Positions 2,995 to 36,233 of a stretch of DNA of 64,000 bases are shown here, piece after piece. Source of the stretch: Escherichia phage vB_EcoM_VR7. Under the pieces are notes generated by a model. The model saw only the letters and a list, made by a program, of their open reading frames with translations. It was not told the origin of the DNA and searched no databases. Position numbers and translations under genes: made by a program. The number at the start of each line of letters is the position of its first letter. Positions within the stretch are counted from its first letter, which is position 1. The DNA is taken from sequence record NC_014792.1, one strand, 5' to 3'.

Positions 2995-4819
2995 GCGTCG
3001 CATTCATCCAATCTTTGCGCAGCTTCGGTTCTTTACCGAAAAGCATTTCGAACAGTTCTTTCCAGTTGTCAGGTAATTGAACAACTTCGAAAACAGGTTC
3101 GAGCAATACGCGCTTGTACTCGGAATCTTCCAGAGAACCCAGTCCCTTGATATATCTGATGGTATGCTTCGGAAGTTTATCCTTAGCTTCTTCATAATCA
3201 GGGAGAGAATAGAACCATTCTTGTTTATCTTTTAGTTGCGCAATAATAACAGGAGTTTTCACAAAGCGAATACGTCCTTCATGGAACAGCTCCGGCCAGT
3301 TACTGAAAAATGCCAATAACGATGGATAGATACTACCAACGCCATCCACATCCGCATCTGTCATGATAGCGATATTTCGGTAATTCATATTCTCGGCTGG
3401 TTGTCCAATCGTTAATCCAGTAATCGCACACACATCAAAGGCTTCTGCGTTTTTCATAACTTCAACAGCTTTCAGACCCCATGTGTTTTTGAACTTACCG
3501 CGCAACGGATATGCACCTTGCAATTCGCGGTCACGAACCTTGATAAACGGTCCGGTTGCAGAATCCCCTTCGGTTAGGAACAAAGTCGTTTCCAGCTTGT
3601 CATTACCCCATTCGTTGGCCTTGATATGTTTCTGTACCTTGGCCTTTGAAGCTTTCTTATTCGCCTTTGTTTCTGCAGCTTTCTCTGCAGCCAATTTACG
3701 CGCCAATGCAGCTTCGACAATCGGCATAATCAGCGATTCATTTTTCAGAATAGCTTGAGCGATTTTCTTAGCATCAATTTGGATATGATTTCGAATCTCG
3801 CCAGCCGGAGAAGTCAATCGCTCCTTGGTCTGGGAATCAAATCGCATATTGCTCATATCGCGGATGAACATAAGCATGGTGAGGCATTCTTTAACTCGTG
3901 CCTTGGTCACCTCGATGCCTTTATATTTGCGCTTAATTGCTGGCTGAAGGTGTTCACAGATATCATCCATAACACATTCAACGTGGTGCCCACCATTCTT
4001 TGTATGGATGTTGTTAACATAAGTCAGCTGACGGAAACCGTCTGGGCTGGTCGTGAAAGCCATTGATACTGTATCAGTTTCCTGGATAACAACTTCAGTC
4101 CCGAATTGTTTGGAGAACTTCTTGAAGTTGCCATCAACCTTTTTACCATTAAAGGTAAACTGAATATCCGGGTAAACAACCGCAAGAGTCTGCAGACGGT
4201 CCAATGTAATATCCAGATAAATCTGGGACAAACTATTTTCTTCAAAGTGACTAAAGTCCGGAATAAAGATAACAGTTGTGCCTTTACCCTTAGATTTCTT
4301 GGTAGACCAACCTTTGTTTTCCATACCGTTGGAGCAGTTAACAGTAATTTCATTTGCACCATCAGCGGTAATCCCTGTAAACAATACAGAGAAAATATTG
4401 GTCAGAGAAGACCCGACGCCATTCATCCCGCCAGTTTTACGTTCAGCATCATCACCGAAGTTGCCCCCGGCTTTTGGAATAGTCCATGCTGCAACAGGCC
4501 CAGGGATTTGTTCACCGCTTTGGTCGACAACCATTGCTTGTGGAATACCACGGCCATTATCAGAAACTGAAATCTGATTATCTTTAATTTGAACATCAAT
4601 TTTATTGGCAAATTTAAAACTGGTGCGAATTGCTTCATCAACAGAGTTATCGATAATTTCATCAATCAGTTTTACAATACCAGGAACATAGCTTACGGAC
4701 TTATATTCACCAAACAAGAATCGCTCATGCGCTTCATTTGAACTGGAACCAATATACATCCCGCTGCGTTTTTTGATGTGTTCAATATCGCTTAAAACAC
4801 GAATTTCATTCTTAATCAT
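2990..4819 (-). CDS. 39: DNA topoisomerase II large subunit (single continuous 39+60-type ORF)
   Basis: 609 aa; GyrB-like GHKL motifs EIIDNSVDEA, DNGRGIP, GGMNGVGSS; uninterrupted ORF. Confidence 0.9.
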   Translation of the reverse strand: MIKNEIRVLSDIEHIKKRSGMYIGSSSNEAHERFLFGEYKSVSYVPGIVKLIDEIIDNSVDEAIRTSFKFANKIDVQIKDNQISVSDNGRGIPQAMVVDQSGEQIPGPVAAWTIPKAGGNFGDDAERKTGGMNGVGSSLTNIFSVLFTGITADGANEITVNCSNGMENKGWSTKKSKGKGTTVIFIPDFSHFEENSLSQIYLDITLDRLQTLAVVYPDIQFTFNGKKVDGNFKKFSKQFGTEVVIQETDTVSMAFTTSPDGFRQLTYVNNIHTKNGGHHVECVMDDICEHLQPAIKRKYKGIEVTKARVKECLTMLMFIRDMSNMRFDSQTKERLTSPAGEIRNHIQIDAKKIAQAILKNESLIMPIVEAALARKLAAEKAAETKANKKASKAKVQKHIKANEWGNDKLETTLFLTEGDSATGPFIKVRDRELQGAYPLRGKFKNTWGLKAVEVMKNAEAFDVCAITGLTIGQPAENMNYRNIAIMTDADVDGVGSIYPSLLAFFSNWPELFHEGRIRFVKTPVIIAQLKDKQEWFYSLPDYEEAKDKLPKHTIRYIKGLGSLEDSEYKRVLLEPVFEVVQLPDNWKELFEMLFGKEPKLRKDWMNATL

Positions 4820-5529
4820 TTCGTTTCCTCATGTTTGTTTAAGTATTTTATCGCATTTTTTAGCGAAGCAATATTGTCTTTAAACATTCCTAGACCGGTA
4901 TTGCACTGTCTACACAAAATGCCCCGAACATGTCCACCTTTATGACAATGGTCAACATTTTTACGAATAACAGAATCAAATTTAATACCACATATTTCGC
5001 AGGTCTCCGTCGTCTTAAGAAGAGACTTAATTACTCTATTAGGAGCCATTATGCCACGAGCTTTAGAAAATGGCCTATCCAATGCATTAAAATCTCGAAC
5101 ATAATTTTGACAGGTTTTAGAACAATAACGAGAAGTCCCATTTACAGCTTCATAAGGTTTACCACATCTTTCGCATAAATGTGTTTTAACATATTCGCCA
5201 CACCCAGCACATTCTTTAGAGCAATATTTATGATATCCTCTAACAAAAGTGTGATAATTAACTTTATTGGTGCATACCGCTGAACTACATAAAACAGGCG
5301 AAGTTATATCATTTAATACTCTATAACAAGCCTCATTTAGCGGAGACTGATTTCTCAAGCCTCCTTGGTTGGTTTTAGATATTTCTATTAATTCATCATA
5401 GAACTTTTGGTTATCATCCCAAAATTTTATATCACGTTTTAAAAGATTGCCGTTTAATTTGTTTTTGTTCTTAGTTAAAAGATTTTCTTCAATAAATTGT
5501 TTTAAGTTCATGGAGGTATTATAAGTCAC
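4816..5529 (-). CDS. putative HNH / endonuclease VII-family homing endonuclease
   Basis: C-terminal DHCHKGGHVRGILCRQCNTGLG matches the gp49 His-Me finger zinc motif; Cys-rich N-terminus; track start appears to be GTG with no clear RBS; overlaps gp39 start by 4 nt. Confidence 0.55.
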   Translation of the reverse strand: MTYNTSMNLKQFIEENLLTKNKNKLNGNLLKRDIKFWDDNQKFYDELIEISKTNQGGLRNQSPLNEACYRVLNDITSPVLCSSAVCTNKVNYHTFVRGYHKYCSKECAGCGEYVKTHLCERCGKPYEAVNGTSRYCSKTCQNYVRDFNALDRPFSKARGIMAPNRVIKSLLKTTETCEICGIKFDSVIRKNVDHCHKGGHVRGILCRQCNTGLGMFKDNIASLKNAIKYLNKHEETK

Positions 5530-15129: not shown

Positions 15130-15816
15130 TTAAATGCCTCTAAATTCATATATTAAAAGTTTAAGTGCACTAGGGGTTGTTTCGTATTTCCCTTTAAGTG
15201 CTTTAACCACGGCAGTTGCCCCACCGGGTTTACCTAATGAAAGCCAAATCTGATAGATTTCACTTTTCAACGGTTCATGCCAATGGGCAGCGGTTCTTTG
15301 AGCTTTAGATGTGGCTTCTGATACGATTTTATTTCCACCATTTGCGTAAAACTCATTCATTGCTTCTGATTGTCTGGATTTGCGTTCAGGCCTATTTTGA
15401 GCGGTGCTTTGAGCTTCCTTCATTTTGGCTTTGGTTTTTGGTTTGTTTAAACGCAATGTTTGGGCCAACTTCATTTCGTCCGTCCATTCGTATCCTTCAC
15501 CACCCTGTCCACCGGGTAAAATATTAATACAATTTGAACCATGTTTAGAATTTAATAATGATATTATATATCTTTCATGTTCAAACATCATTTCCCGATT
15601 CTGGTGACCTACAAACCAACGAATTTTATATTTGACCCCATATTTTTTATAGATATTCCAAAGTATTTTTCCAGAGCCAGGATATCGGTCTTTATTTGGG
15701 TCTAATACATTGGTCTCATGTTTACCACCATACCAAAAAACGCCTTTCGGCGTTTTAACTTTAATTATATAAGTTCTATAAAATTTTGCCTTAATAGCCA
15801 TGGTCCTGGCGCTCAA
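15130..15816 (-). CDS. putative GIY-YIG homing endonuclease (segF position)
   Basis: 228 aa; YIIKV...FWYGGKHE, EHERYII, NILPGGQGG; basic C-terminal DNA-binding-like region. Confidence 0.5.
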   Translation of the reverse strand: MSARTMAIKAKFYRTYIIKVKTPKGVFWYGGKHETNVLDPNKDRYPGSGKILWNIYKKYGVKYKIRWFVGHQNREMMFEHERYIISLLNSKHGSNCINILPGGQGGEGYEWTDEMKLAQTLRLNKPKTKAKMKEAQSTAQNRPERKSRQSEAMNEFYANGGNKIVSEATSKAQRTAAHWHEPLKSEIYQIWLSLGKPGGATAVVKALKGKYETTPSALKLLIYEFRGI

Positions 15817-18048: not shown

Positions 18049-18235
18049 CAACGAAGATGGCTTTATCACCATTTGCATCAGTCACTTCATAAGTGTCTTC
18101 ATGATACAACGGAATAATCCAGGTAACACCATCATCAGCAATAACATGGATTGCTTCTTGGTCTTGCGACACGATTTCATATTCTTCAAAAATCTCGAAT
18201 ACGGAAATCTTAGAGCCCGTACACATTGCACTCAT
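18044..18235 (-). CDS. hypothetical protein
   Basis: 63 aa acidic ORF. Confidence 0.4.
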   Translation of the reverse strand: MSAMCTGSKISVFEIFEEYEIVSQDQEAIHVIADDGVTWIIPLYHEDTYEVTDANGDKAIFVV

Positions 18236-18431
18236 ATTGTTCCCTTCTTTTAATCAGTTGGCGATGTGCCTTTTTAAGCTTACGAATCTGACGTTTGGTT
18301 GGTCGTGCAACGTAAGCTTGTGTAGTTACTCGTCCGAAAACTCCATACTTGGGAGACGGAGTATCAATGAAGACTTCCCATTGACAAGAGTAGCTATATG
18401 TTGCTTTAGAAAATTGAGTTAAAACAAACAT
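18210..18431 (-). CDS. small basic protein, RPTKRQIR-motif family
   Basis: 73 aa; ARPTKRQIRKLKKAHRQ shared with 19587..19883 and 40041..40217. Confidence 0.5.
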   Translation of the reverse strand: MFVLTQFSKATYSYSCQWEVFIDTPSPKYGVFGRVTTQAYVARPTKRQIRKLKKAHRQLIKRREQYECNVYGL

Positions 18432-18432
18432 A

Positions 18433-18792
18433 TTAACCTCGTTTCATGAAGGCATTAAAAATCTGGTCGTCAATAGCAATAGACTGTTCTTGAGCTTTGG
18501 CCCAAACCCCTTCCAGAATGTCATTCGCTTCAGTAGATATCATGACCCCAATTTCAGGATTTCCAGTTATCCAGATTGCGCAATCGCGCACATTCTTTTT
18601 ATCAAATGGATATCCACGAGTATCTTCATAAGGTCCATCCATTACCATAAATGAGCGAGCCTTTATGATAAAATCATCTTTAACGATAATATAACCAATC
18701 GCCTGATTAAACCGAGGCTCACGAAATTCATAATGAGCATTACCATCATTATTGCTGACCAGTTCAAAATCCAGAAAATTATAATAACTCAT
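18433..18792 (-). CDS. hypothetical protein with duplicated C-terminal cassette
   Basis: 119 aa; ends AIDDQIFNAFMKRG; about 45 nt DNA repeat at 3' end. Confidence 0.5.
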   Translation of the reverse strand: MSYYNFLDFELVSNNDGNAHYEFREPRFNQAIGYIIVKDDFIIKARSFMVMDGPYEDTRGYPFDKKNVRDCAIWITGNPEIGVMISTEANDILEGVWAKAQEQSIAIDDQIFNAFMKRG

Positions 18793-18840
18793 ATTAATCT
18801 CGCTTCATAAAGGCATTAAAAATTTGGTCGTCAACTGAAT
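18433..18840 (-). repeat. about 45-nt direct repeat at the 3' ends of two adjacent genes
   Basis: 18433..18480 and 18790..18840 are roughly 85% identical, covering the last 11 codons, the stop and the next start codon. Confidence 0.55.
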
Positions 18841-19231
18841 AAACGGGGGTTTCCAGAATTTTCAAAAGACTGTTTTTGATGTACTTGCTAGGGATACTTG
18901 CATTAATAACATCATCAACTAATTCGCTGTTGTGATTAATATTGTTGAATTCAAACCCTTCAAATGTTACTTTATGAGGAACACCCCCAGAAAACAGATG
19001 TGTCAATTCAATCATTGTATTACGCGTAAGCGGTTTGGTTACCATTTTAGGGAAATCTTTCCACTGATTTAATTCTTTGTTAAGAAGTTTATGAGCAAAT
19101 ACAATTCTATCATCACTATCAACAAGAAAATAACCCAGATATTGAATCTCGTCGCTCCAAAACACCCTGTAGGCCTGTGCATTTGGATTTTTACAACGAA
19201 GTTTTTTGATAACCAAATTTCTGTTAATCAT
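18794..19231 (-). CDS. hypothetical protein with duplicated C-terminal cassette
   Basis: start moved to MINRNL (AGGTGA RBS); ends SVDDQIFNAFMKRD. Confidence 0.5.
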   Translation of the reverse strand: MINRNLVIKKLRCKNPNAQAYRVFWSDEIQYLGYFLVDSDDRIVFAHKLLNKELNQWKDFPKMVTKPLTRNTMIELTHLFSGGVPHKVTFEGFEFNNINHNSELVDDVINASIPSKYIKNSLLKILETPVYSVDDQIFNAFMKRD

Positions 19232-19232
19232 T

Positions 19233-19526
19233 TTATTCACCTGTAACTTCTTTGACGATGTTTTCATTTTCAAAGTTAGGGTCACAATACAACACGTAAT
19301 TATACTGCATAACCCCACCAGATGCCAACTGGTCAGATACTTCTTTGACCTTGTTTAGTTGGTCACGTTTAGTGATGTTCATGATGTCCGCGTAAATCTG
19401 GTGTTCAACTGCTTCCTGGTCAGCGGTCATTGACCACTCACAAAGGTCTTTATCATAACCAGCGGTAACTGGAGCTGCGTGACATGAAGCGAGGACTAAG
19501 ATTGCTGCGATAGATAACTTTTTCAT
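19233..19526 (-). CDS. sp: spackle periplasmic protein
   Basis: 97 aa; signal peptide; GYDKDLCEWSMTADQ and GGVMQYNYVLYCD recalled from T4 Sp. Confidence 0.7.
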   Translation of the reverse strand: MKKLSIAAILVLASCHAAPVTAGYDKDLCEWSMTADQEAVEHQIYADIMNITKRDQLNKVKEVSDQLASGGVMQYNYVLYCDPNFENENIVKEVTGE

Positions 19527-19586: not shown

Positions 19587-19883
19587 TTATTTTACTTTAG
19601 CGTAATCTAAAGTCACTAACTGCGGTTCCATTGCCAATTGACGTTGACGACGGAGGACTGATGCACGGACATACACGCGAAATGCCTTTTTGCATTGGCG
19701 AATCTGACGCTTAGTTGGACGAACATCAAATTCATAGAATTCTACAAAGTCCATTTGTCCCTTGGTTTGTTGAGAAATAATAAGTTCCCAACGACTGTTT
19801 ACGCGGTCTGCATAAAACTTGTGCTTACCAAAAGACTTGTCCCAAAAACCACTTTTTACGGGTTTCATAATTTGAATAATCAT
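19587..19883 (-). CDS. small basic protein, RPTKRQIR-motif family
   Basis: 98 aa; VRPTKRQIRQCKKAFR. Confidence 0.5.
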   Translation of the reverse strand: MIIQIMKPVKSGFWDKSFGKHKFYADRVNSRWELIISQQTKGQMDFVEFYEFDVRPTKRQIRQCKKAFRVYVRASVLRRQRQLAMEPQLVTLDYAKVK

Positions 19884-20732: not shown

Positions 20733-20761
20733 ATTATACTATAAAGAAAAGGGGGTGTACA
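20733..20761 (-). promoter_or_regulatory. early promoter cassette, -35 inside a hairpin
   Basis: GGGGGTGTACACCCCC palindrome, then N17-TATAAT-GACCCTATCAACTACTGGAGAATAAAATG. Confidence 0.55.
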
Positions 20762-20774
20762 CCCCCTTTATCAC

Positions 20775-21128: not shown

Positions 21129-21157
21129 ATTATGCCCTAGTAGAATTCAGTTGTACA
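21129..21157 (-). promoter_or_regulatory. early promoter cassette (GATTCCATACTGAGTTAC class)
   Basis: TGTACA-N17-CATAAT-GATTCCATACTGAGTTAC. Confidence 0.55.
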
Positions 21158-21164
21158 CCCCTTT

Positions 21165-21195
21165 TTAAAATAAAAAAGGACCCGAAGGTCCTTGT
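21165..21195 (-). terminator. UUCG-tetraloop terminator downstream of gp41
   Basis: aggacc-cgaa-ggtcct with A/T runs. Confidence 0.6.
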
Positions 21196-25344: not shown

Positions 25345-28059
25345 TTAAAAGTCAAACATATCAAAAAGAGTTGCTTTCTTTTCGTAATCAACCTTTGCAG
25401 CTTCAGAGAAACCTGTCAATGGCTTAACAAAAGTCTTCTGGAACAGTGTGTTGTAGTCCATCCATTGCAAGACCTGGTCGCGGATTTCAATCGGGAGTTC
25501 AATCCCTGATGGCCATGCAATCACAGTTTCACCAAACGGGTTACCGACTTTAAGAGGAAGCACATACACTTTTTCCCCTTCCATGATTTGCGGAACAGTC
25601 TTCAGACCTTTAGTTGCACGCATATAAGCGAGCACACCTTTGATATGAGCCGGGCACTTAAATCCAGGGAAACCACCTTCGTTATATTTCTGGATGTTGT
25701 TAACCGATGATACACCCGCGATGGTCATGTAGTTAAGCTCATTAAATTCCTTGTTGAATTCCTTGAAGTATGTCTGCAGAGATTCTTCACCTTCTTGCAG
25801 CATACGGCGGATACATTCTTTCAGGGCTTTCTGACATGCCTTTGGAGTACTCGACTTTTGAGTTTCCAGACCCATGATTTTTAGTTTCGGAACAGCATAT
25901 CGTGTGCCTTCCATATCATATACGTTCAGTGCATAACGCTTCTTCGCTGTCCAGAAACCGCCAACACCTTTAGAACCCAGCGGTGGACATGCAATTGCTT
26001 CACGGTCCATAAACATAAGGTGCTGTTTGTTGTTCATGTATTCAGCCAGTTCACGGAAAGCTTTATCGATTGCCGGTTCCAGGCGGTCTTTTGCAAACTT
26101 GTCCATGAAGTCAACCAGGTGGTTTGTATCACGGAATTTAGATTCGCCACCAACCTTTTTAATCAGGTTATCGCACTGGATATAAATGGAGTCAGTATCA
26201 CCATAGAATACGTACGTCTCACCACTTGTACCACACACACCATCAAAGTATTCGTTAACTTTACGTTCAATCCACTGCAATGCCAACTGACCGAAAGATG
26301 TAATCGCAGTTGCATTTCGCAGGTCAAAGTAACGGAACCAGATATTACCCAGAGCACCATAACAGCTGTTGATAAGCAGTTTACGGTTAATCTGCGCGGT
26401 CATGCCAGCAACTTCTTCCATCTGTGCTTTATACAGCATACCGTTCAGGACGGTTTGATTCAGACCATGTAAGGTTGTTTTCATATTGTCATCAAAGTCA
26501 TGACGATAATCAACTTCTGGTTCGGTTGTGCCAGTTCCTGGATTACTCAGAGCTTCCTTAATCAGTTCACCATTACGTTGGGCAGCAAGCATATAACCTT
26601 TGTGTTCTTTTCGTTGATTAAAAACTTTCTCAACTTCTGTCGGAATAATACCCGCAACATCTTTAAAATACATCATACCATTTGGCGCGCAACTAAATGC
26701 ATCAGATGGCCGGTCAGCAGTTCCTGCGATGTATTCGTGCATATGGGCTGGTGCAAATGACCCGGCAATCGTTTCTGGACTGATGTTAATCTGTCGGATG
26801 ATGCTCGGATAAAGAGATGTTAAGTCGCAGCTCATTACATATTTGTATGCGTTCGGAATCGGTTCCTTAACAAATGCACCAGGGAACGATTGACGAACAT
26901 GCGATTTAGTTTCAGGGATAACCTTGTTTTGAGTCTTCAGGCTGTTAAAGATAATCGCATCCCAAGTTTTGATTGGGCTGAATACAGACTGAATCTGCAT
27001 CTTTGCATAATAACCCATCGATTGGCTCAGGTTAATGAACTGTCGCTTACGGTCAATCTGCACAACACGATAAACGTCAATGATGTTATAGCTGATGTAA
27101 CGTTGGTGATTGGATTCACGCAGTTTAGAAATCGGGCCATCATACGGGAGTTTACCAACACCCAGCTCAGATTCCGCAACATAGTCCAACGAGTAAGATG
27201 GTTGGTTTGTGAAGCTGAACTTTTTGTACAGGTCCAGATAATCCAGAACAGAGACACCCAGAATCTGAATGATTTCTTGTTCTTCACCAAAGCCGTTGTT
27301 AATGACCTTAACTTTTGTACGACGATGTGGGCTCAGACGTTTGGCCGTAGCTTCACCAAATACATTTTTAAGGCGGTTGTAGATATATGGAATATCAAAT
27401 TTCTCGATGTTCCAACCAGTTAACATAACCGGAGTTTTCTCGTTCCAGAATACCAAATACTGCTGGAGCATTTCTTCTTCTGAATCAAATGCCATATAAA
27501 CAATTTTTTCAAGGATTTCACTCGGGACTTCATCACCACCATCTTCCTGCAGCTTAGCAGCAATATCAATAGACCATTGCTCCACAGTAGCGTATGGTGA
27601 GCCCAAAAGGTCAAAGACATAGAATTTATCGTCTACCGAATCATAGTGCGTCAGGGCATCAATAGGGTGACGTGCTTCAGACGGCTCAGGGAACCCATCA
27701 GGAGATGTCACCTCGATATCGAAGTTAGCAACACGGATTTTACTTGAATCGTATTTGATTTCATGTGGGTAACGGTCGCTCAGGTATGCGAGTTTGAAAT
27801 CGTCCATACCCATAGCTTCGAGGCCCATATCGTTCATGCGCTTCATCCACTGGGATGCATCACGCATGGAATCAAACTCTTTTTTCACACAGCCTTTATT
27901 ATAGATGTCTGAATATTTTGTTGCTTGGCCTTCACGAGCGTGCATAAAGAGACAAGGAGTATATGGAATTTCACGGGTTCGCTCATTACCATTCTTGTCA
28001 ATATAACGTTCGTGAAGATTATCGCCGATTTGTTCGATAGTTAAATAAAATTCTTGCAT
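25345..28059 (-). CDS. 43: DNA polymerase (family B)
   Basis: 904 aa; exonuclease FDIE, polymerase YGDTDS motif. Confidence 0.95.
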   Translation of the reverse strand: MQEFYLTIEQIGDNLHERYIDKNGNERTREIPYTPCLFMHAREGQATKYSDIYNKGCVKKEFDSMRDASQWMKRMNDMGLEAMGMDDFKLAYLSDRYPHEIKYDSSKIRVANFDIEVTSPDGFPEPSEARHPIDALTHYDSVDDKFYVFDLLGSPYATVEQWSIDIAAKLQEDGGDEVPSEILEKIVYMAFDSEEEMLQQYLVFWNEKTPVMLTGWNIEKFDIPYIYNRLKNVFGEATAKRLSPHRRTKVKVINNGFGEEQEIIQILGVSVLDYLDLYKKFSFTNQPSYSLDYVAESELGVGKLPYDGPISKLRESNHQRYISYNIIDVYRVVQIDRKRQFINLSQSMGYYAKMQIQSVFSPIKTWDAIIFNSLKTQNKVIPETKSHVRQSFPGAFVKEPIPNAYKYVMSCDLTSLYPSIIRQINISPETIAGSFAPAHMHEYIAGTADRPSDAFSCAPNGMMYFKDVAGIIPTEVEKVFNQRKEHKGYMLAAQRNGELIKEALSNPGTGTTEPEVDYRHDFDDNMKTTLHGLNQTVLNGMLYKAQMEEVAGMTAQINRKLLINSCYGALGNIWFRYFDLRNATAITSFGQLALQWIERKVNEYFDGVCGTSGETYVFYGDTDSIYIQCDNLIKKVGGESKFRDTNHLVDFMDKFAKDRLEPAIDKAFRELAEYMNNKQHLMFMDREAIACPPLGSKGVGGFWTAKKRYALNVYDMEGTRYAVPKLKIMGLETQKSSTPKACQKALKECIRRMLQEGEESLQTYFKEFNKEFNELNYMTIAGVSSVNNIQKYNEGGFPGFKCPAHIKGVLAYMRATKGLKTVPQIMEGEKVYVLPLKVGNPFGETVIAWPSGIELPIEIRDQVLQWMDYNTLFQKTFVKPLTGFSEAAKVDYEKKATLFDMFDF

Positions 28060-35458: not shown

Positions 35459-35710
35459 TTAATCCTTGGGAGTTAACTCAATTGTAAAATATAGATTAGC
35501 ATTATCCACATGATAACGGTAATCAACGTTATTATCCGGTGAAGTAAATTCCAGATTCCGGACGTTTAAAGGGTCGATATCAATTGGAAGACCTTTTATG
35601 TCTCGCAGATAAAGTTTAATGAAATATGGGAGCGCTGTAAAGTCTTCCTCGATTTTATCTAAAAAATCGGTAATATCAAATTGATGTTCCATATAAAAAA
35701 TCCAAATCAC
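35459..35710 (-). CDS. hypothetical protein
   Basis: 83 aa; start codon ambiguous (GTG in track). Confidence 0.4.
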
Positions 35711-36233
35711 CCTCTTTATCCTTGGCGCTCTTATCAGACCCTGGCGCTTTAACTAAGGAGGATTCGTACTGTGTCATTTTGTCATAGATGTCCTGGATAA
35801 ATGTTTCGTCAGCCAGAGCCACCATATCGTCGTCACGTGAATCATACACGTTATGGACGAAGTAGCTATATTTCTTTGCCATTTCTTTACGTTCTTTTTT
35901 GATACGCTGAACGAAAGCATTGAAGCAAGCCATTGTTATGTAAGCATGTGGATTATCGTATTTTGTTTCGTCGAAGTTATGAAGACCTTTTATTGCGGCC
36001 TCAATTCCGTCCGCTATCATTTCCTGCTTCCAAGATTGGGTATATCCTGAAAAGTTGAAACGTTTAGACAGACCTTCGGCTATAAGCATAATTGCCAGAC
36101 CAATAACATCGTTCTGGCGAATAATTTTATTTGGGTCGGTGTTCGCATTCAGCTTCTGTTTCCACTCCGAAATAGCTTTCAGAAGCTCTTTATTATTTAC
36201 ATAGTTATTCTTGGTTAATTTAATTTCGTTCAT
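35676..36233 (-). CDS. 55: late sigma factor
   Basis: 185 aa; [42 protein letters not shown] recalled from T4 gp55. Confidence 0.9.

Follow-up and report, generated by a model that had tools for sequence, protein, structure and literature searches.

T4-like phages provide several described systems with which the element studied here can be compared. AdfA, the product of T4 gene 61.2, is the anti-DarT factor A (PMC11257639, and LeRoux et al. cited there), and the RB69 adfA primer shows a C-terminus reading QIFNAFMNRG* (PMC11257639). Mobile cassettes with a regulatory role, the PeSLs, are known from T4-type phages (Arbiol et al., 2010, PMC2839356; Comeau et al., 2014, PMC4122927), and tandem paralogs stand beside conserved genes in T4-like genomes, examples being the duplicates of alt and motB (Nolan et al., 2006, PMC1524935). 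A further point of comparison is the T4 middle promoter P61, which has its start site at 19122 (Hinton, 2010, Table 1, PMC2988021). The element in question is a 45-nucleotide repeat, or cassette, in Escherichia phage vB_EcoM_VR7 (NC_014792.1). It lies in a stretch of 64,000 nucleotides that was analysed as a whole and is called the window below, and it covers the 3' ends of two adjacent genes on the minus strand, the upstream one (18794..19231) encoding 145 residues and the downstream one (18433..18792) encoding 119.

We consider it probable, at roughly three chances in four, that these genes are tandem, highly diverged paralogs of the AdfA superfamily that share a constant C-terminal helix (the tail), and that the DNA encoding this helix doubles as a junction of Shine-Dalgarno sequence, stop and start codon and as a promoter of the P61 type. 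The gene family, the P61 promoter and the annotation 'similar to gp61.2' are already on record. In the literature searched, no description was found of single-domain paralog subfamilies tied to AdfA by an invariant tail, of the exact overlap of the tail with P61 and the translational junction, or of concerted evolution specific to the tail.

The repeated tail and the AdfA family

A repeat search of the window pairs 18429-18473 with 18790-18834, both on the minus strand, with 41 of the 45 nucleotides identical (91%). The upstream copy (18790..18834) encodes (V)DDQIFNAFMKRD, followed by the stop codon TAA (18794-18796), a single T and the ATG of the 119-residue gene (18790-18792). The downstream copy (18429..18473) encodes (I)DDQIFNAFMKRG, followed by TAA (18433-18435), T and the ATG (18429-18431) of a gene of the DUF7279 family. 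The 145-residue protein ends in ...SVDDQIFNAFMKRD and the 119-residue protein in ...AIDDQIFNAFMKRG, and in both DDQIFNAFMKR precedes G or D, the stop, a single T and the start codon of the following gene. The original prediction, made from the letters of the sequence, had described this common end with its stop, and a repeat spanning a coding end and the next start; the open reading frames and the repeat bear out both. It had put the identity at about 85%, a figure that is too low for a similarity that is real, and had extended the repeat over some 20 nucleotides after the stop. Only the T and the ATG (4 nucleotides) are shared there, and past the ATG the in-register identity is about 5/16, which is background. 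Within the 45 nucleotides the identity does not fall to background when the copies are properly aligned.

The repeat sets in sharply within the Ile/Val codon, of which it takes in the last two bases, and it ends at the next ATG. Coding sequence makes up 41 of its nucleotides, comprising 12 full tail codons, two nucleotides from the codon before them and the start codon of the following gene; the stop and one spacer nucleotide are the rest. Three of the four differences between the copies are at synonymous third positions and the fourth is in the last codon (GGT or GAT, giving G or D). The repeat period, 361 bp, is the gene length, and BLASTP of the two proteins against each other detects the tail alone. 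A degenerate 34-nucleotide pattern finds only these two sites in the 64 kb and none in 100 shuffles, which rules out a chance or low-complexity repeat. RNAalifold, run on 15 cassettes, gave no conserved RNA structure (0 pairs).

Proteins of the AdfA/gp61.2 family have this tail as their C-terminus. It is 13 residues long, with the consensus [SA][IV]DDQIFNAFM[NK][RK][GD]*, and is identical in AdfA of the T4 type, of the RB69 type and of locus L018 and in both window proteins. The tail of the 119-residue protein matches positions 193-211, the last 19, of the Pfam family AdfA (PF23813; anti-DarT factor A, T4 61.2), and also the ends of two further PHROG families. A blastn census of the cassette found 750 places in 555 phage records, all of them Tevenvirinae, the T4-like phages of enterobacteria. 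The tail is always located in the slot between sp and 61.1, as surveyed in loci fetched around sp, two pattern scans and several GenBank records. In T4 and RB69 adfA directly follows sp, and the window pair has the same genomic position, directly downstream of sp and upstream of 61.1/61.

Depending on the phage, the slot between sp and 61.1/61 holds no, one or two genes with the tail, and about 195 genomes have two copies. The genes are of three types: AdfA itself (206-216 residues), a 145-residue type, and a type of 116-125 residues that includes the 119-residue gene of the window. Where there are two, they are either AdfA followed by a 118-residue type or the 145-residue type followed by the 119-residue type. 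The 119-residue gene of the window is 44-46% identical to the gene of 118-119 residues that follows adfA in RB32-like T4-type phages, and RB32 ORF033c, the second gene, is already annotated 'similar to gp61.2'. In all 41 instances the tail is followed by a stop, exactly one nucleotide and an ATG, before four different downstream genes. A profile of the tail alone, run against 1.84 billion (1.84e9) representative proteins, gave eight true hits, all from this superfamily, and exact-peptide scans of DNA from IMG/VR and metagenomes found the tail at no other locus or gene, only on sp-linked T4-like contigs. Relatives were expected, in the original prediction, to join the cassette to different N-terminal modules. 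They do so in that the slot holds none, one or two genes of several types, but all these types belong to one superfamily.

The likeness of the window pair to AdfA comprises the identical tail, the slot after sp, the junction of stop, one nucleotide and ATG, a motif in the body and a weak collinear profile similarity, the last two being described below. The differences are that AdfA has about 206-216 residues and two domains, whereas the window proteins have 119 and 145 residues and one domain each, and that the slot in the window holds two genes and no canonical adfA. Binding and neutralisation of the DarT1 toxin are properties of AdfA itself. By the Pfam criterion neither window protein is a member of AdfA; both have its tail and its position, and appear to have a related domain.

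Relationship of the two bodies

A search for homologous proteins with the 119-residue protein gave close relatives only, and remote links were therefore sought from profiles and structure. Outside the tail the two proteins are only about 18-20% identical, whereas the tails are identical in protein. HHalign was run on the bodies with the tail removed, using 40 column shuffles per comparison as a control. It gave a score of 25.2 for the 119- against the 145-residue body (shuffles 12.2 ± 2.0), 23.1 for the 145-residue body against the C-terminal half of AdfA (11.9 ± 2.3) and 25.3 for the two halves of AdfA against each other (11.3 ± 2.4), and in each of these comparisons 0/40 shuffles reached the real score. 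The profile-profile alignments are collinear and are anchored by a motif G-h-h-h-V-K-D-[DN]-x-I (h, hydrophobic), which reads GYIIVKDDFII in the 119-residue protein, GYFLVDSDDRIV in the 145-residue protein, and IFVIVKDNEIV and GGIFVKDNRII in the halves of AdfA.

AlphaFold2 models of both proteins have the same order of elements, namely four strands, helix, strand, helix (pLDDT 69.5 and 66.7), with the tail as a separate helix of low confidence after a linker of low confidence. In a Foldseek search of BFVD the 119- and 145-residue families are reciprocal best non-self hits (E = 4.5e-3 and 2.6e-5; probability 1.0). As judged by tail-less HHalign, model topology and Foldseek, the two bodies are remote homologs, divergent paralogs of one domain superfamily, and the description of their N-terminal parts as unrelated does not hold. 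The domain is about 100 residues long, with one copy in each window protein and two in AdfA.

The arrangement resembles the other tandem paralogs of T4-like genomes in that copies of a non-essential early gene lie side by side on one strand and have diverged. It differs from them in the extreme divergence of the bodies, beside zero divergence in a 13-residue tail, and in a concerted evolution that affects the tail only.

Constraints on the tail DNA

Among 22 distinct cassettes the codons for DDQIFNAFM vary at six sites, every one of them a synonymous third position, for which a hand calculation with random placement gives a chance of 84/296010 = 2.8e-4. The variation has a three-base periodicity, and we therefore attribute the pattern to selection on the peptide. 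The Arg codon of the tail also varies, being CGA or AGA. This codon and the Gly codon after it, (C/A)GA GGT, contain a Shine-Dalgarno sequence GAGG for the downstream gene, read from the sequence at 18437..18440 on the minus strand in the downstream copy; the upstream copy has a weaker one, GAGA, at 18798-18801. In the window, on this reading, nothing beyond the peptide and the junction signals is needed to account for the repeat.

In genomes with two copies, the Shine-Dalgarno sequence of the upstream tail is usually weakened through the last or second-last residue, sometimes with a TAG stop. The weakened forms have GAT for GGT (GAGAT) in Gaprivervirus and AAA for AGA (AAAGG) in Tequatrovirus, and were found at loci L003, L017, L018, L039, L042, L043 and L050 and in the window at 18797-18801. 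This suggests that translation of the second gene may be tuned downward.

The same DNA contains a promoter in T4. There, the stop of 61.2 occupies 19134-19132 and the 61.1 ATG begins at 19130, the sequence being ...TTT AAT GCT TTT ATG AAT AGA GGT TAA T ATG AAA ACA. TAATAT, composed of the stop, the T and the AT of the ATG, occupies 19134-19129, and the mapped start at 19122 lies 7 nucleotides further on, as +1. The MotA box has the consensus (a/t)(a/t)(a/t)TGCTTtA at 12 ± 1 bp from the -10 element, and MotA is reported to tolerate single changes in the box (PMC2988021). The T4 box TAATGCTTTT matches at 9/10 positions, lies 12 bp upstream of TAATAT and falls on the Phe/Asn/Ala/Phe codons. On these coordinates the T4 cassette holds the whole of the mapped P61.

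Both copies in the window contain a similar putative site on the minus strand. In the downstream copy (18430..18457), which is the positional homolog of T4 P61, the box TAATGCCTTC (18448-18457) matches at 8/10 positions and is separated by a 12-nucleotide spacer from TAATAT (18430-18435). In the upstream copy (18791..18818) the box TAATGCCTTT (18809-18818) also matches at 8/10, again with 12 nucleotides before TAATAT (18791-18796), so that both copies have the spacing expected of a -10 element. Transcription starts are predicted near 18423 and 18784 (minus), and both copies may act as promoters. The pattern WWWTGCNTY-N13-TANNNT occurs 9 times in the window against 1.6 expected, always on the minus (transcribed) strand, with sites of MotA box and -10 at 5518, 13960, 18430, 18791, 23031, 30389, 34662, 42288 and 61384. 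Several of these coincide in position with middle promoters of T4, as does 34662 upstream of gene 47. The genes motA (VR25_276) and asiA (VR25_268) are present in the 99%-identical phage VR25; both fall outside the window.

The window sites are like T4 P61 in their homologous sequence, in a box on the Asn-Ala-Phe codons, in a 12-bp spacer that holds the Shine-Dalgarno sequence and in a -10 element made from the stop of a 61.2-like gene, T and AT. They differ in being duplicated, in the GCCT at the centre of the box, and in that the downstream copy precedes the DUF7279 gene and not 61.1. Across instances, positions 1 and 4 of the box coincide with the third bases of Phe-TTT and Asn-AAT and are constant in 41/41 and 40/41, and this near-invariance suggests that the promoter may add some constraint of its own.

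Three loci whose slot has no tail-bearing gene (L022-L024) have an unrelated 69-residue open reading frame before 61.1, and no strict match to a P61-like promoter was found in them. The 3' end of this reading frame, at about 4470-4520, has a MotA-box-like AAATGCTTA (TGCTTA) about 45 nucleotides upstream of the 61.1 ATG, with no good -10 element at the right spacing.

In relatives of the window phage there is also evidence of exchange between tails. The tail of the Tequatrovirus 118-residue gene is identical to the Tequatrovirus AdfA tail at 42/42 nucleotides, and shows 7 differences from that of its own ortholog in Gaprivervirus. With expectations computed from the codon usage of the window, the two tails of VR20 have the same codon at 11/12 synonymous-capable positions (5.3 expected, P=5.6e-4), and those of the T4-type locus L040 at 12/13 (P=2.5e-4). 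Orthologous tails of different genera agree at 6/11, a random level (P=0.31), and the two tails of P8 at 7/11 (P=0.16), which is not significant. One GAT codon is common to both tails of L018 and occurs in no other genome. Synonymous sites in the tail track the lineage of the genome, not the gene family, and this indicates probable gene conversion in relatives of the window genome (VR20 and the T4 type). Codon bias is ruled out as the cause of lineage-specific tails for VR20 and L040, not for the window pair.

Changes in copy number fall at the same place. The region is 99% identical to that of Escherichia phage vB_EcoM_VR25 (Gaprivervirus, Tevenvirinae; T4-like), and VR26 equals VR25 minus exactly one repeat period of 361 bp, both breakpoints being inside the repeat. 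VR26 retains a tail of the upstream type, fused to the sequence that follows the downstream copy. In L021 adfA has been lost and a remnant, AGAGGTTAGTATG, kept, and in P0044 a body of 36% identity is joined to nearly identical last residues, about 33 in number.

On the basis of these observations, we propose that the pair occupies the sp-61.1 slot as two genes of one domain plus the signature tail, where AdfA would have two domains plus the same tail. The 45-nucleotide repeat is the coding sequence of the tail and at the same time supplies the Shine-Dalgarno sequence (in its last two codons), stop and start through which the next gene would be translationally coupled. Purifying selection on the peptide would be the main force keeping the DNA identical, and the expression signals that overlap it would add to this. 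From time to time, gene conversion or unequal exchange involving the tails of one genome would produce both the homogenised tails and the variants with none, one or two genes, so that exchange would be a consequence of the conservation.

The original prediction had offered a different cause, a recombination joint used for gene shuffling. Put more fully, the cassette would be kept as DNA and would serve as a portable patch of homology for swapping unrelated N-terminal modules, as PeSLs do between genes. The breakpoints of the VR25/VR26 indel, the filling of the slot by AdfA, the 145-residue type, the 119-residue type or combinations of them, the clustering of tails by genome and the hybrid P0044 can all be cited for it, and that part of the claim which concerns gain and loss at the cassette and exchange of tails is upheld. 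The shuffling of unrelated modules is not, since the bodies are homologous and the tail was found on no other protein family among the representatives searched. Moreover, the restriction of variation to synonymous third positions, which points to selection at the level of the peptide, is unlike the pattern of a DNA site, orthologous tails of different genera are randomised at synonymous sites, and the VR25/VR26 difference could also spread through ordinary crossovers in flanking genes. A length of 45 bp is said, from the work of Singer et al. in 1982, to be at the lower edge of efficient homologous recombination in T4, which again counts against a joint. We consider it improbable that the cassette is kept for recombination. 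With PeSLs it shares the short repeat, the Shine-Dalgarno sequence and next start at its 3' end, a promoter, a place in a hyperplastic early region and a position flanking indels between close relatives. PeSLs, however, are intergenic and consist of a sigma70-type early promoter with a stem-loop terminator of G/C runs, whereas the cassette is coding, has a promoter that in T4 depends on MotA, and is tied to one protein superfamily. A promoter scan found no sigma70-like promoter at 18429-18473 or 18790-18834, and a scan for terminators found no stem-loop at either copy, so that the cassette is ruled out as a PeSL.

A second possibility is that regulatory DNA is what is conserved, namely a P61-type MotA promoter with the Shine-Dalgarno sequence and start for 61.1 and primase gene 61, the peptide being incidental. 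The exact position of T4 P61 on the cassette agrees with this, as do the near-constant box positions 1 and 4, the TAATAT or TAAAAT in most instances, the enrichment of the pattern on the transcribed strand and the presence of motA and asiA. On the sequences compared, though, the promoter cannot be the main cause of conservation, because no position varies more than the centre of the box (GCT, GCC or GCA), because a TGA stop in several Dhakavirus genomes gives TGATAT, without the A at -11, and because S-[IV]-D-D-Q-I upstream of the box is invariant while its third positions are free. A further reason is that the genomes with two copies keep the peptide upstream, where a transcript from the promoter would run into the following tail gene but lack its ATG. 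A DNA element would also not give three-base periodicity, and a primary role for regulation is in our judgement improbable. Much less credible is a remnant of recent local duplication, or chance, with no particular function. In its favour are two neighbouring genes of similar size and common strand, with a repeat period that is the gene length. Against it are bodies that have diverged to about 18-20% identity beside tails identical in protein, and a chance expectation of 0; the invariance of the tail across at least four genera and 555 genomes effectively refutes it.

Some results weigh against our preferred reading of the pair as AdfA-superfamily paralogs with an overlapping promoter. The PF23813 score of the 119-residue protein is 22.4 bits, below the gathering threshold of 27, and comes from the tail only; the 145-residue protein has no PF23813 match at E<=0.1. 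HHalign scores of the 119-residue body against the halves of AdfA are weak (20.2 and 21.1; shuffles 11.5 ± 3.2 and 12.7 ± 3.8, of which 1/40 and 2/40 reach the real score), and HH probabilities are low throughout, at 5-31%, because the alignments are shallow. The Foldseek scores include the identical tail and come from models of moderate quality (pLDDT 67-70), and AdfA itself is absent from the top 50 Foldseek hits in BFVD. The window boxes match at 8/10 with a deviant centre (GCCT), promoter activity having been mapped in T4 alone. The two window tails agree at 7/10 synonymous sites against 4.7 expected, which is not significant (P=0.13), and because of this gene conversion is placed in the relatives and not in the window genome.

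Possible role of the tail and surrounding genes

The prediction for the tail is an amphipathic helix on a flexible tether, with hydrophobic residues at i, i+4, i+5, i+8 and i+9. Because of this pattern, the detached helix in the models and its invariance beside diversifying bodies, the tail may serve as a constant docking or oligomerisation helix for variable anti-defence bodies.

One possible partner is the sliding clamp, gp45. Clamp-binding tails at the C-termini of gp43 and gp55 have reportedly been described by Shamoo and Steitz in 1999 and by the Geiduschek laboratory, and we take the C-termini of gp43 (25345..28059) and gp55 (35676..36233) in the window, both on the minus strand, to be such tails. 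Like these, the AdfA-like tail follows a flexible acidic linker and places a hydrophobic/aromatic motif at the very C-terminus: gp43 of the window ends in ...KKATLFDMFDF and the tail reads ...QIFNAFMK, a common h-F-[DN]-x-F. Beyond the second Phe the sequences are not alike, and the AdfA-like tail ends in basic residues and Gly. Within their last 14 residues only four of the 256 open reading frames, namely gp43, gp55 and the two AdfA-like proteins, have h-F-[DN]-x-F or h-[DN]-F-h-[FY]. Because this motif was framed once the likeness had been noticed, the resemblance is a post-hoc lead only. A bolder version, which we regard as unlikely, would make the tail a portable adaptor and expression cassette. 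Its docking helix, possibly binding the gp45 clamp, would bring the variable heads of AdfA-like proteins to the replication fork, a site at which single-stranded DNA is modified by DarT-type toxins, and its DNA would provide a MotA promoter, Shine-Dalgarno sequence, start and the homology for duplication, loss and in-frame exchange of heads.

AdfA is one of the few characterised counter-defence proteins against DarT. If the preferred reading is correct, it has unrecognised single-domain paralogs, of the 119- and 145-residue types, in hundreds of T4-like phages, and the tail would be the functionally constant part of these proteins, the bodies being the diversifying and probably specificity-determining part. 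Mutating or deleting sequence at the 3' end of adfA/61.2 would affect the Shine-Dalgarno sequence of the next gene and, in T4, the middle promoter P61 of the primase gene, and experiments on anti-defence proteins of the AdfA family could be guided by this. The cassette would also be a compact case of one 45-nucleotide stretch constrained by protein function, translation and transcription signals together.

The 119-residue gene belongs to phrog_4122 and corresponds to VR25_037, which is annotated 'similar to T4 gp61.2'; the 145-residue gene belongs to phrog_8539 and is a homolog of VR25_038. The slot is defined by its conserved left neighbour sp (spackle; 19233..19526, minus; PF25676, E=1.4e-41), to which the 145-residue gene is joined by stop, one nucleotide and ATG. 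In the order of transcription, the region contains the helicase gp41, small open reading frames including dmd, a DUF7279 gene, sp, the 145- and 119-residue genes, a second DUF7279 gene, a 63-residue open reading frame, 61.1 and the primase gp61. The DUF7279 ('61.4-like') gene whose ATG closes the downstream cassette is at 18210..18431 and its paralog is at 19587..19883, both on the minus strand, so that the two bracket the block of sp, 145- and 119-residue genes. They share a stretch of 45 nucleotides at 76% identity (18261-18305 and 19677-19721) that encodes RPTKRQIR..KKA.R. In T4, 61.4 is single and lies upstream of sp.

A segF-like open reading frame for a homing endonuclease (15130..15816, minus, 228 residues) lies between soc and gene 56; it occurs in VR26 and not in VR25. 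The region upstream of sp and the 119-residue gene are VR25-like, and the window genome is therefore a mosaic of VR25 and VR26. A protein (P0001) that is 97% identical to the 119-residue one carries the NCBI label of a Limosilactobacillus reuteri metagenome-assembled genome (2.5-kb contig), and its source is almost certainly a mis-binned coliphage contig.

PeSL-like elements are present elsewhere in the window, at 20733-20769 and 21129-21193 (minus), in intergenic gaps downstream of gene 41. Their stem-loops of G and C runs, AAAGGGGGTGTACACCCCCTTT and AAGGACCTTCGGGTCCTT, the latter followed by a T-run, overlap or adjoin sigma70-like promoters (TGTACA-N17-TATAAT), and an inverted repeat connects 20747-20761 in the first element with 21152-21166 in the second.

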